Shown here piece after piece: positions 1,311 through 49,078 of a stretch of 64,000 nucleotides of DNA; the first letter of the stretch is position 1, and the number at the start of each line of letters is the position of its first letter. This DNA comes from Escherichia coli (lineage in GTDB: Bacteria; Pseudomonadota; Gammaproteobacteria; Enterobacterales; Enterobacteriaceae). The notes beneath the pieces were generated by a model, which had not been told where the DNA came from, did no database searches, and saw nothing but the letters and a program-made list of their open reading frames with translations. The stretch lies in the NCBI RefSeq assembly GCF_029227855.1, contig NZ_CP074356.1; one strand, written 5' to 3'. A program made the position numbers and the translations under genes.

Positions 1311-1699
1311 GCTGCAACATTGTTTTCCTTGCGGGTTGTCCCGAGCCTCTTTGACGAATGTAATTAAAATGTTGAATCAAAATACATAGATATTAAATAT
1401 AATCGTGGCAAATTTTATTCATTAAATCAATTAAATCACTTAAACCTGCGGGTCATTTCGTAATTACATTAATTAAAAAACTTAAAACCATTAAATAAAT
1501 AAAAAACCACTAACTCTATGTGAAATAAATCAAAATTTCACGCTGCAATACTCCTTAGGATGTATAGCGAAAGGAGAAAAAGATATACCTCGATCGCCCC
1601 CCTTTCTCCCAAGTGAAAATAAAAGGTTATCAGTTTGCAACATCGAACAACATTTGTTGCAAATCGATAACAACATGCACCTTCAGGATACTATTTATT

Positions 1700-9358: not shown

Positions 9359-9536
9359 TCCTCTGATTTACAAAACACGCTAATTCGTCTTCCATAAACC
9401 ATGACGATTAAGATTTATACATAATGCGCTACATTGAGGAATTCCCTGAATGTGACGCAAATCACTTCAAAGAGTGAGCAACAGTCAGTATCATCATGTG
9501 AGTTAAACCCTCGCCGCCTGACGGTGAGGGTTTTCT

Positions 9537-10248
9537 TGTGCACAGAAAACCCCCAGCTAGGCTGGGGGTTCCGGAAAGCTTTCAGCTTTGAGCCTGTTAT
9601 TAAAACCCCTTTTGATTTGTTAAAACACCTTGCGGTCTGGCAACTGCAAGTGTCAAACAAGAAATCAAAAGGGGGTCCCAATGGGGAACGAAAAGAGCTT
9701 AGCGCACACCCGATGGAACTGTAAATATCACATAGTTTTTGCGCCAAAATACCGAAGACAGGTGTTCTACAGAGAGAAGCGTAGAGCAATAGGCAGTATT
9801 TTGAGAAAGCTGTGTGAGTGGAAAAGCGTACGGATTCTGGAAGCTGAATGCTGTGCAGATCATATCCATATGCTTGTGGAGATCCCGCCTAAAATGAGCG
9901 TATCCGGGTTTATGGGATATCTGAAAGGGAAAAGCAGTCTGATGCTTTACGAGCAGTTTGGTGATTTGAAATTCAAATACAGGAACAGGGAGTTCTGGTG
10001 CAGAGGGTACTACGTCGATACAGTGGGTAAGAACACGGCGAAGATACAGGATTACACAAAGCACCAGCTTGAAGAGGATAAAATGGGAGAGCAGTTATCG
10101 ATTCCCTATCCGGGCAGCCCGTTTACGGGCCGTAAGTAACGAAGTTGGATGCAAATGTCAGATCGTGTGCGCCTGTTAGGGCGCGGCTGGTAAGAGAGCC
10201 TTATAGGCGCATTTGAAAAACCTCCGGCTATGCCGGAGGATATTTATT
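9537..10248 (+). mobile_element. IS200 copy 1 (IS200/IS605 family), ~712 bp, boundaries approximate (+/- 5 bp)
   Basis: Boundaries set by where the sequence stops matching the reverse complement of copy 2 (48334..49046). Contains a left-end hairpin CCCCCAGC-TAG-GCTGGGGG, a 152-aa tnpA, and a right-end hairpin CCTCCGGC-TAT-GCCGGAGG. No terminal inverted repeats, as expected for this family. Confidence 0.85.
9681..10139 (+). CDS. tnpA: IS200 transposase TnpA (HUH Y1 transposase), 152 aa
   Basis: ORF 9630..10139; start taken at ATG 9681 (MGNEKSLAHTRWNCKYHIVFAPKYRRQVFY...HIHMLVEIPPK), the IS200 TnpA signature. Confidence 0.9.
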   Translation: MGNEKSLAHTRWNCKYHIVFAPKYRRQVFYREKRRAIGSILRKLCEWKSVRILEAECCADHIHMLVEIPPKMSVSGFMGYLKGKSSLMLYEQFGDLKFKYRNREFWCRGYYVDTVGKNTAKIQDYTKHQLEEDKMGEQLSIPYPGSPFTGRK

Positions 10249-10299
10249 TTTGGGTATGTTTATCTGCGACACTCGCAGTACCGACGACATGGAGTAAAA

Positions 10300-10710
10300 A
10301 TGTCCAGACCAACTATCATCATTAACGACCTGGATGCCGAACGCATCGATATTCTGCTGGAGCAACCCGCCTATGCTGGTTTGCCAATCGCCGACGCGTT
10401 AAACGCAGAGTTGGATCGCGCCCAAATGTGTTCGCCAGAAGAGATGCCACACGACGTGGTGACAATGAACAGCCGGGTTAAATTCCGCAATCTTAGCGAT
10501 GGCGAAGTGCGTGTGCGCACGCTGGTGTATCCGGCAAAAATGACCGACAGCAATACTCAGCTTTCCGTTATGGCTCCGGTAGGTGCCGCACTGCTGGGGC
10601 TGCGCGTTGGCGATTCCATTCACTGGGAACTTCCGGGCGGCGTTGCAACCCACCTTGAAGTGCTGGAACTCGAATACCAGCCAGAAGCTGCTGGCGACTA
10701 CCTGCTTTAA
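10300..10710 (+). CDS. rnk: Regulator of nucleoside diphosphate kinase Rnk (GreA/GreB-like), 136 aa
   Basis: ORF 10213..10710; start taken at ATG 10300 ([28 protein letters not shown]...). Confidence 0.9.
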
Positions 10711-13350: not shown

Positions 13351-13914
13351 TTAGATTTTACCAACCAGGTCCAGAGACGGAGCCAGAGTTGCTTCACCTT
13401 CTTTCCATTTAGCCGGGCAAACTTCACCTGGGTGAGAAGCTACGTACTGTGCTGCTTTGATTTTACGCAGCAGGTCAGACGCGTCACGGCCAATGCCTTC
13501 AGCGGTAACTTCGATTGCCTGGATGATACCCTGCGGGTCAACAACGAAGGTCGCACGGTCAGCCAGACCTTCATCTTCACGCATGTTGTCGAAGTTACGG
13601 GTCAGGGCGCCAGTCGGGTCGCCGATCATCGCATATTTGATTTTAGCGATGGTTTCAGAGCTGCTGTGCCATGCTTTGTGGGTGAAGTGAGTATCGGTAG
13701 ATACTGCGTATACGTCTACGCCCAGTTTCTGCAGTTCTTCGTAGTGGTCAGCAACGTCACCCAGTTCGGTCGGGCATACGAAAGTAAAGTCAGCCGGGTA
13801 GAAGAAGAAGACGCTCCAGCGGCCTTCGGTATCTTTTTCGGTGATTTCGATGAATTCGCCGTTTTTGAATGCCTGGTTTTTAAAAGGTTTAATTTTGGTG
13901 TTAATCAAGGACAT
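13351..13914 (-). CDS. ahpC: Alkyl hydroperoxide reductase subunit C (peroxiredoxin), 187 aa
   Basis: ORF track 13351..13914, [51 protein letters not shown]... Confidence 0.95.
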
Positions 13915-43145: not shown

Positions 43146-43266
43146 TTGACAACATCTGGTACGATTCGCCCGCAGCCATTACTGACCGCGGGCGAAAGTG
43201 TAAAGCAGGTGCCTTACCATCCTGACCTGACAACCGGATATGCGGGGATTGCTCCCCGCACAACGG

Positions 43267-43419
43267 CTACTTCTTCGGTTCGTAAGCGAGAACAGCCTTA
43301 AACTCAATATTACGTTCCTTCACCGTAAACTCACACAGCGAGTCGCGGACCAGAAGCGTAAATCCCAGCACCGTTAAACACAGCACTATGACTGCCACAA
43401 GGGCATATTTCGTCAGCAT
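43267..43419 (-). CDS. hokE: Hok-family membrane toxin, copy A, 50 aa (Arg at position 25)
   Basis: ORF 43267..43455; Hok start at ATG 43419 with GGAGG Shine-Dalgarno: [50 protein letters not shown]. Confidence 0.8.
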
Positions 43420-43519
43420 GTTTATATTGCCTCCATGCGAAGAAGGGACTACCATCCGAGTTGTTCAGGTTTGGGTAGGTAGCCCCAGGGTTGATAGAAA
43501 TATCGTCCTGGGGCTTCAT
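43331..43519 (-). CDS. mok-like overlapping reading frame of hok copy A, 62 aa
   Basis: ORF track 43331..43519 ([20 protein letters not shown]...), starts upstream of hok and overlaps it out of frame, the arrangement known for mok in hok/sok loci. Confidence 0.4.
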
Positions 43520-43670
43520 CTTTCCAGACCTCAGAGTTAACCTGAAACCGGAAAGCTTCAGGCACCCGCCGTTATCTTACCCTTCCTCAGCAAAATAGCT
43601 GTTTATTTATACAGTGAATCCTGTTTCGGACTTCTGTTGGCAAAACTGATCATTGCCCTTAAAACGACAT

Positions 43671-44139
43671 CGCCCGCAGCCATTGCTGACCGCGGGCGAA
43701 AGTGTAAAGCAGGTGCCTTACCACCCTGACCTGACAACCGGATATGCGGGGATTACTCCCCGCACAACGGCTACTTCTTCGGTTCGTAAGCGAGAACAGC
43801 CTTAAACTCAATATTACGTTCCTTCACCGTAAACTCACACAGCGAGTCTCCGACCAGAAGCGTAAATCCCAGTACCGTCAAACACAGCACTATGACTGCC
43901 ACAAGGGCATATTTCGTCAGCATGTTTATATTGCCTCCATGCGAAGAAGGGACTACCATCCAAATTGTCTGGTTTGGAGTGGCAGCCCCAGGGTTGATAG
44001 AAATATCTCCTGGGGCTTCATCTTTCCAGACCTCAGAGTAAACCTGAAACCGGAAAGCTTCAGGCACCCGCCGTTATCTTACCCTTCCTCAGCAAAATGG
44101 CTGTTTATTTATACAGTGAGTCCTGTTTCGGACTTCTCA
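43671..44139 (-). other. hok/sok-type type I toxin-antitoxin locus, copy B (hokE-like), boundaries approximate
   Basis: Tandem direct repeat of copy A with a 504-bp period; same stem-loops; differs by several substitutions and small indels in the mok/leader region. Confidence 0.8.
43771..43923 (-). CDS. hokE: Hok-family membrane toxin, copy B, 50 aa (Gly at position 25)
   Basis: ORF 43771..44067; Hok start at ATG 43923 with GGAGG Shine-Dalgarno: [50 protein letters not shown]. In this copy the upstream frame is fused in-frame to hok. Confidence 0.8.
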
Positions 44140-44354
44140 CTCCTAATTTGATCAACTGAAGCTGAACCCGTTTTTTTCTGCATGCCTCAATCGTCAAAAT
44201 TCTTCGCCACCAGCCAGCTCTGCCATAACTTGTCACATTGCAAAAGTAGCCAAATTGCTTCAGTCACCATCACCAAAAAAAAGAAACATTCCAGAACTTC
44301 CGCATCTCGCCCAGCCGCTCCGACTTCTATACTGAATAGAAAACGCCAACATAA

Positions 44355-48333: not shown

Positions 48334-49046
48334 AATAAATATCCTCCGGCATAGCCGGAGGTTTTTCAAATGCGCCTATAAGGCTCTCTTACCAGCCGCG
48401 CCCTAACAGGCGCACACGATCTGACATTTGCATCCAACTTCGTTACTTACGGCCCGTAAACGGGCTGCCCGGATAGGGAATCGATAACTGCTCTCCCATT
48501 TTATCCTCTTCAAGCTGGTGCTTTATGTAATCCTGTATCTTCGCCGTGTTCTTACCCACTGTATCGACGTAGTACCCTCTGCACCAGAACTCCCTGTTCC
48601 TGTATTTGAATTTCAAATCACCAAACTGCTCGTAAAGCATCAGACTGCTTTTCCCTTTCAGATATCCCATAAACCCGGATACGCTCATTTTGGGCGGGAT
48701 CTCCACAAGCATATGGATATGATCTGCACAGCATTCAGCTTCCAGAATCCGTACGCTTTTCCACTCACACAGCTTTCTCAAAATACTGCCTATTGCTCTA
48801 CGCTTCTCTCTGTAGAACACCTGTCTTCGGTATTTTGGCGCAAAAACTATGTGATATTTACAGTTCCATCGGGTGTGCGCTAAGCTCTTTTCGTTCCCCA
48901 TTGGGACCCCCTTTTGATTTCTTGTTTGACACTTGCAGTTGCCAGACCGCAAAGTGTTTTAACAAATCAAAAGGGGTTTTAATAACTGGCTCAAAGCTGA
49001 AAGCTTTCCGGAACCCCCAGCCTAGCTGGGGGTTTTCTGTGCACAA
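48334..49046 (-). mobile_element. IS200 copy 2 (IS200/IS605 family), ~713 bp, inverted relative to copy 1; boundaries approximate
   Basis: Reverse complement matches copy 1 over its full length; I saw one mismatch in the noncoding left part plus one TnpA codon difference. Begins 3 bp after the ybdG stop; its other end abuts the pheP terminator hairpin. Confidence 0.85.
48443..48901 (-). CDS. tnpA: IS200 transposase TnpA, 152 aa
   Basis: ORF 48443..48952; start taken at the ATG at 48901 (MGNEKSLAHTRWNCKYHIVFAPKYRR...); differs from copy 1 at one residue (Ile versus Thr in ...KIQDY[I/T]KHQ...). Confidence 0.9.
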   Translation of the reverse strand: MGNEKSLAHTRWNCKYHIVFAPKYRRQVFYREKRRAIGSILRKLCEWKSVRILEAECCADHIHMLVEIPPKMSVSGFMGYLKGKSSLMLYEQFGDLKFKYRNREFWCRGYYVDTVGKNTAKIQDYIKHQLEEDKMGEQLSIPYPGSPFTGRK

Positions 49047-49078
49047 AAAAACCGCTCTCATCGAATGGATGAGAGCGG
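49044..49078 (-). terminator. Rho-independent terminator of pheP (minus strand)
   Basis: CCGCTCTCATC-GAATG-GATGAGAGCGG hairpin followed on the minus strand by a 7-nt U-run; a degenerate REP-like palindrome lies between it and the pheP stop. Confidence 0.65.

Follow-up and report, generated by a model that had tools for sequence, protein, structure and literature searches.

A conserved repeat block in the predicted citC leader of the Escherichia coli dpiB-citC control region

The repeats just upstream of citC in Escherichia coli, which the original prediction offered as candidates for binding of DpiA, CRP or an anaerobic regulator, appear to lie downstream of the citC promoter. On balance, and with limited confidence, we favour an arrangement in which a class II-type promoter is situated upstream of these repeats, the DpiA/DcuR repeats are found still further up, the flagged repeats belong to the leader, a conserved block around them is a protein site contacted on one face of the DNA, and the palindrome associated with it is young. 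A more specific claim is put forward only tentatively: the citC leader may carry a previously undescribed candidate operator of ~60 bp, conserved ~74 nt before the start codon in many genera of Enterobacterales, with which an oligomeric regulator or silencer would make contact at each helical turn. The dpiB-citC locus controls anaerobic citrate fermentation, and the control region between the two genes is already known and curated, so that the finding is mostly ordinary in this respect. Its outcome is a map of a probable promoter, a CRP/FNR-like site, a NarL-like site and a DpiA/DcuR repeat region, and with the repeats placed in the leader, an erroneous assignment to the DpiA operator is avoided.

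The dpiB-citC spacer and its predicted promoter

All positions refer to the window, i.e. the whole stretch of 64,000 nucleotides that was analysed. A query of 601 bp around the feature is 100% identical to E. coli strain CFSAN018748, and the E. coli K-12 locus is 98% identical to the window. The 5' part of the sensor kinase gene dpiB (citA) occupies positions 1-1320 on the minus strand (translation MLQLNENKQF..., RefSeq annotation of the identical sequence). With the dpiB start codon on the complementary strand at 1318-1320 and the citC ATG at 1700, the spacer comprises positions 1321-1699, which amounts to 379 bp (378 bp in K-12). The spacer had been recognised correctly in the original prediction, but not its length: the 389 bp counted from position 1311 take in 10 nt of dpiB. 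Its characterisation as an AT-rich, divergent control region holds, with a GC content of 31.7% for the spacer, falling to 23% over 1351-1550, versus 52.5% in the whole window, and 5419 of 5426 complete E. coli genomes carry the region, each time between dpiB and citC. The window represents a minority allele, to which 178 of these 5419 genomes are identical over the 89-mer 1611-1699. The major allele (K-12, O157) carries the changes C1644T and T1655C, with which the top A-U pair of the leader hairpin (see below) is lost.

For comparison, 80 citC loci from different species were collected, among which the divergent dpiB-citC layout with a spacer of ~380 bp is kept across Enterobacterales. An alignment of 17 spacers covers Escherichia, Citrobacter, Salmonella and Enterobacter; more distant genera were inspected separately. 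The translation start of citC is well defined on the plus strand (1685-1702), where the Shine-Dalgarno sequence AGGA (1685-1688) and the ATG (1700-1702) are embedded in the motifs CAGGA and ATGTTyGG, which are conserved in almost all loci.

The spacer contains a single match to the CRP consensus (scanned as TGTGA-N6-TCACA) with no more than one mismatch. This CRP/FNR-family site, TGTGAAATAAATCAAA at 1519-1534 (centre 1526.5), has the form TGTGA-N6-TCAA with one mismatch to the CRP consensus, and its right half also fits FNR. It is invariant in the 17-spacer alignment and present in all 37 Enterobacterales species examined (37/37). Exactly 21 bp past this site, 34 of the 37 species possess a hexamer TAnnAT, which reads TAGGAT on the plus strand of the window (1556-1561). 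The hexamer is invariant in the alignment, and its inner bases vary among the species, with TAGGAT, TACGAT, TATTAT, TACTAT and TAATAT among the variants. Such a fixed spacing combined with varying inner bases is characteristic of a -10 element, which would place the upstream site at ~-41.5. Transcription of citC should accordingly be initiated near 1568 (predicted range ~1567-1569). The citC promoter, the architecture of which is indicated by this conservation, is predicted to be of class II type and is situated well upstream of the flagged repeats. A leader (5' UTR) of ~133 nt is predicted from the conservation of the -10 hexamer at 1568-1699 on the plus strand, and the promoter map would therefore put the repeats at ~+46 to +109. 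A terminator scan returned no terminator-like site on the plus strand of the leader. The part of the aerobic Cappable-seq data that was covered contains no transcription start in the spacer, and the Myers 2013 sigma-70 ChIP table lists no peak there.

A site resembling the NarL/NarP 7-2-7 arrangement, TACTCCT-TA-GGATGTA at 1549-1564 on the plus strand, overlaps the predicted -10 hexamer and is the sole match in the spacer to the pattern scanned (TACYYMT-NN-AKRRGTA). Its heptamer TACYYMT is present in register in 16 of the 37 species. Early in the leader, TACCTCG at 1586-1592 matches the NarL heptamer at six of seven positions, next to a semi-conserved GAAATAnnnCG, and may provide a second NarL contact at ~+19.

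Upstream of the predicted promoter, at ~-60 to -130, three repeats of the TTAAAACCA type, TTAAA(A)CCA, are found at 1439-1447, 1481-1490 and 1500-1509. The first TTAAA(A)CC-type repeat belongs to three tandem 9-bp units, ATTAAATCA / ATTAAATCA / CTTAAACCT, at 1421-1447 on the plus strand, which we take to be a candidate DcuR/DpiA site from its position and from Scheu 2012 and Abo-Amer 2004. A near-invariant A+T-rich block, ATTAATTAAAAAACTTAAAACCATTAAATAAATAAAAAACCA, occupies 1466-1509 on the plus strand and includes AAAACCA repeats at 1484-1490 and 1503-1509. A position weight matrix of the upstream motif (cTTAAAACCAt), derived from 76 upstream copies, gives scores of 18.7 and 13.5 for two copies in the window and of 2.8 for the divergent first copy (TAAACC). 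The TTAAAACCA-type motif is probably the CitB/DcuR motif, and the A+T-rich repeats would in that case constitute the target region of DpiA/DcuR. An ad hoc pattern, AATTAA-N6-TWAAAACCA, was discarded, as its perfect match at 13874-13894 lies inside the ahpC coding sequence and is due to chance.

A published truncation bears directly on the position of the DpiA sites. The citC promoter region has been reused as a gut biosensor promoter (PMC12405535), and in a published biosensor study the EcoCyc-derived DpiA operator sites, to which the A+T-rich block at 1466-1509 belongs, were deleted with primer DTR305, which anneals at CATCTAACTCTTTGTGAAATAAATCAAA; the resulting construct starts with CATCTAACTCTTTGTGAAAT, corresponding to ~1508 here. 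It retained everything from the CRP-like site through the ATG, including the CAACA repeats, and citrate induction was lost. The curated DpiA sites must therefore be located upstream of ~1508, and the repeats are insufficient for DpiA control.

On the dpiB side of the spacer, the 17-spacer alignment reveals a further conserved block, TGTAATtAAAATGTTg / TGTAATtAAAATGTT at 1359-1374, ~40 bp upstream of the dpiB start, which is kept from Escherichia to Edwardsiella. This block is ArcA-like with two mismatches, a match at chance level; it could be the dpiB promoter, an operator or a leader targeted by a small RNA. Within dpiB itself, a K-12 Cappable-seq start (U00096.2 651822+) corresponds to ~957 of the window on the minus strand, ~365 nt into the coding sequence, and a Myers 2013 supplementary table, presumed to report sigma-70 ChIP, gives a peak at 651824 'within dpiB'. 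These two independent K-12 data sets suggest an internal promoter in dpiB, where the conversion of coordinates is good to ~1 nt.

Two further loci in the window may be recorded here. An element of the IS200 family is present in two copies of 720 nt (9529-10248 and 48334-49053), which are 99% identical, inverted and 38 kb apart, and which carry a Y1_Tnp transposase ORF (9630-10139) as well as matches to STnc490 RNA. The first copy separates the rnk leader (9434-9542) from the rnk coding sequence (10213-10710) and may uncouple the two; the inverted pair could mediate an inversion. Likewise, a toxin-antitoxin locus of the hok/sok type is tandemly duplicated at 43166-44154 with a period of ~504 bp and 93-97% identity, and contains two sok matches (43411-43567 and 43915-44069).

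The conserved leader block and its palindrome

The string quoted in the original prediction occurs exactly at 1633-1679, and both the near-palindrome and the repeated CAACA/TGTTG half-sites just upstream of the citC start, which were described with it, are real. The near-palindrome (1626-1671) consists of two 17-nt arms, 1626-1642 and 1655-1671, which are 88% complementary and separated by a 12-nt gap, with a perfect core of 9 nt, TTTGCAACA / TGTTGCAAA. Its RNA fold reaches -18.5 kcal/mol (z = -6.0) and ranks within the top 1.2% when compared with low-GC 61-mers of the window; when the spacer is shuffled by dinucleotides, a perfect inverted repeat of 9 nt by itself is seen in 8% of cases. The two copies of AACAACAT, at 1646-1653 and 1669-1676, are the only ones on the plus strand in 64 kb, and CAACAT is present three times (1638, 1648 and 1671). 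Palindrome and repeats together are more than chance, and the perfect core alone is weak.

Across genera, the conserved feature is not the palindrome but the direct CAACA/AACA repeats in a 10-bp register: CAACA at 1648-1652 and AACA at 1669-1672, both parts of the two AACAACAT copies (1646-1676), are invariant. The inner right arm of the palindrome, TGTTGCAAA, is found only in Escherichia, and stem changes within this genus are uncompensated. The palindrome thus appears to be a young elaboration, confined to Escherichia, of a conserved block.

This block extends over 1613-1676 and reads TGAAAAyAAAAnGTTATCAnnTTGCAACA-N5-CAACA-N8-AA-N6-AACAA, or in the short form of its ~60 bp TGAAAAyAAAAnGTTATCA..TTGCAACA..CAACA..AACAA. 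In the alignment it is free of indels across Escherichia, Citrobacter, Salmonella and two further enterobacterial genera, and its 5' half reaches Hafnia, Buttiauxella, Edwardsiella and others. Its position is nearly constant in many genera, at 73-75 nt from the ATG. No copy of it was found in the regions upstream of ybdO (citR). The Atlantibacter loci (L029, L031) are without the block and possess a G+C-rich hairpin followed by TTTTTTATT (GCCTGCGTTGCGGGC-TTTTTTATT) ~60-90 nt before the citC ATG, at ~2910-2945 of the locus, a terminator-like leader structure that hints at control by attenuation.

The conservation of the block is periodic. At a period of 10.5 bp its power is 3.05, compared with 0.36 in column shuffles, and no other part of the spacer gives a stronger signal at 10-11 bp; a run-preserving shuffle gives p = 0.025, which is only moderately significant with n=13 related sequences. 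Power at a period of three is 0.08 where 0.35 is expected. Curvature from phased A-tracts was considered as a source of the signal and rejected: the power of AA dinucleotides at 10-11 bp is non-significant in 11 of 12 species, and the periodicity therefore concerns which bases are constrained and not the composition of A-tracts. Direct repeats phased at 10-11 bp, as in a tandem array of response-regulator sites, are present, with CAACA at 1638 and 1648 and AACA at 1669. A 10.5-bp period that is accompanied neither by codon periodicity nor by RNA covariation or an Rfam match suggests that a protein contacts the DNA on one face.

Following the pattern of conservation, the ~60-bp block would be bound by a sequence-specific protein on one DNA face downstream of the promoter, and might modulate the expression of citC as an auxiliary operator or a silencing element. 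Both the palindrome and the CAACA/AACAACAT repeats would then reside in the leader and would not be operators of DpiA, CRP or NarL, while the right arm of the palindrome would create a leader hairpin and, on the opposite strand, a hairpin with a U-run at the 3' end of nog1. If this holds, the block would add a downstream layer to the control of citrate fermentation, beyond DpiA, DcuR, CRP and NarL. Silencing of the citC-dpiB locus by nucleoid proteins is suggested as well, and a real operator in the block would explain residual regulation of citC (H-NS/StpA-dependent silencing, oxygen effects). It would also matter for the engineering of PcitC sensors, and would represent a modest advance of specialist interest.

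Several candidates for a function of the block were tried and rejected. Likeness to sites of the LacI family (PurR/Cra-like), IHF, Fis, CytR and Fur or to a DnaA box, judged by eye against consensus sequences, failed at key positions (e.g. a central CG), which are unconserved. A second promoter may exist within the block, although a scan yielded no sigma-70-like pair there and the -35/-10 pairings tried by hand are unconserved; nor is a sigma-54 GG-N10-GC pairing or a promoter on the minus strand conserved. A full-text search of the literature did not find the site sequences.

Alternative readings of the repeats

The C/A-rich leader and its hairpin could instead function within the citC mRNA, by enhancing translation, by influencing stability or as a target of a small RNA or an RNA-binding protein. 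The block is predicted to be transcribed, the sense strand is rich in A and C (48 A, 30 C, 20 G, 34 T), the E. coli hairpin is stable, and an outer GUUAUC/GRYAAC pairing is still possible across genera. However, the consensus structure obtained with RNAalifold is empty, covariation is absent and no compensation accompanies changes of the inner stem, no Rfam match rises above noise, and a conservation period of 10.5 nt has no rationale at the RNA level. Nor does pairing with the small RNA GcvB help: the duplex with its R1 region reaches -25.1 kcal/mol, a value equalled by 34% of random genomic 154-mers in what is a crude test, and the full-length duplex of -62.6 kcal/mol is meaningless. We regard action of the leader in the mRNA as unlikely.

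The palindrome may also be viewed from the other strand. An overlapping gene of 101 aa antisense to citC, nog1, has been published (PMC4683798) and maps to 1630-1935 on the minus strand (primer Z0762+21F maps to 1633), so that its last 14 codons and its stop codon (1632-1630) are inside the palindrome. Selection could have shaped the palindrome as an intrinsic terminator on this strand, which would end nog1 and other antisense transcripts ahead of dpiB and the citC promoter. A stem of 16 bp on the minus strand is directly followed by the U-run CUUUUAUUUUCAC (1612-1625; stem + CUUUUAUUUU), which is terminator-like for antisense (nog1) transcripts. A predicted terminator after the gene is reported by the authors of nog1 (PMC4683798). 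Neither nog1 nor the complete palindrome is found outside Escherichia/Shigella, and with this same narrow taxonomic range a link between the two is possible. Intrinsic terminators usually have a G+C-rich stem, a loop of 3-8 nt and a direct U-run. The stem in question, by contrast, is AU-rich (5 of 16 pairs are G-C) with a 12-nt loop, the terminator scan did not call it, and its changes among Escherichia lineages are uncompensated. The T-run is kept in genera that possess neither the hairpin nor nog1, and therefore predates any role in termination. That termination is what the palindrome was selected for seems quite improbable.

Still more doubtful is the proposal that had accompanied the repeats, according to which DpiA (CitB), CRP or ArcA/FNR/NarL use the CAACA/TGTTG half-sites as operators at the citC promoter. 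On the minus strand, TGTTG/TGTTA at a spacing of 10 bp resembles the direct repeats of the ArcA/OmpR family, the 10.5-bp conservation period would suit a tandem array of response regulators, and matches with two mismatches exist to the ArcA pattern (1657-1672, minus strand) and to the FNR pattern (TTGAT-N4-ATCAA, at 1654-1667). Matches of this quality are nevertheless frequent in the window (46 ArcA-like versus 37.6 expected, and 53 FNR-like), and both of those named fall on the arm that is found in Escherichia only. An ArcA box was rejected in its own right, since it requires TGTTA direct repeats 11 bp apart and the conserved repeats are 10 bp apart. The CRP-like (1519-1534) and NarL-like (1549-1564) sites map elsewhere, the DpiA sites are upstream of ~1508 and the repeats alone confer no citrate response, and the matrix of the upstream motif scores no more than 1.4 anywhere in 1613-1676, compared with 13-19 at the two upstream copies. 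In the text, supplements and tables covered, the ArcA study (Park 2013) names neither citC nor dpiB, and Myers 2013 lists no FNR peak for citC or the spacer. Motif scans for CRP, NarL, ArcA, FNR and the upstream motif therefore place no regulator on the repeats, and the scans and the published truncation together locate the sites for DpiA, CRP and the anaerobic regulators at other positions. The published accounts covered here likewise put no regulator on the CAACA block at 1613-1676, and the assignment made in the original prediction is not supported and, on its own terms, largely refuted.

It is, finally, hardly conceivable that the block is coding, as an N-terminal extension of CitC beginning at GTG 1613 in the older EHEC annotation Z0762 (ORF 1613-2758, 381 aa; the RefSeq start is now ATG 1700). 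In E. coli, no stop interrupts the frame between 1613 and citC, and the alignment, read by hand, shows it open and in register for C. koseri and C. amalonaticus as well. A 1-nt indel nevertheless breaks it in Salmonella and the C. portucalensis group, Hafnia has a stop after six codons, 3-nt periodicity is absent and the supposed third positions of the codons are invariant, no feature is annotated there by RefSeq in any of the genomes listed, and a conserved Shine-Dalgarno sequence and ATG are present at 1685-1702.

Relation to known systems

A protein site on one DNA face, which remains our preferred reading of the block, has well-known parallels. Tandem arrays of response regulators, such as the F1-F2-F3 sites of OmpR at ompF, and of LysR-type tetramers, such as the four-groove sites of OxyR, likewise extend over ~60 bp and show patches once per helical turn, a likeness that concerns the layout of such one-face arrays in general and implies no membership of the citC block in either group. 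In contrast to these arrays, the block is situated downstream of its promoter. A Salmonella OmpR ChIP-seq study does not mention the cit genes in the text and supplements covered.

Different treatments of the same DNA are found in the EHEC literature, in which the nog1 paper regards the region as coding, inside the long citC annotation, and not as a leader or a conserved cis element. In Klebsiella pneumoniae, the citS-citC region similarly represents a divergent control region for citrate fermentation, with a regulator of the CitB family on A+T-rich DNA and with involvement of CRP, according to PMC2735749, which cites Meyer et al. 1997 and 2001. The K. pneumoniae system differs in its partner gene, which is citS and not citA, and in CitC, which is only ~55% identical.

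The closest comparison is the citC-dpiB region of E. coli K-12 as curated in EcoCyc/RegulonDB, which is the same locus. The curation records activation by DpiA/CitB, a DcuR site before citAB, and effects of nitrate and cAMP-CRP, and there, too, the DpiA sites are located upstream of the core promoter. The nitrate inhibition and the cAMP-CRP effects reported for K-12 fit the NarL-like and CRP-like sites of the window.
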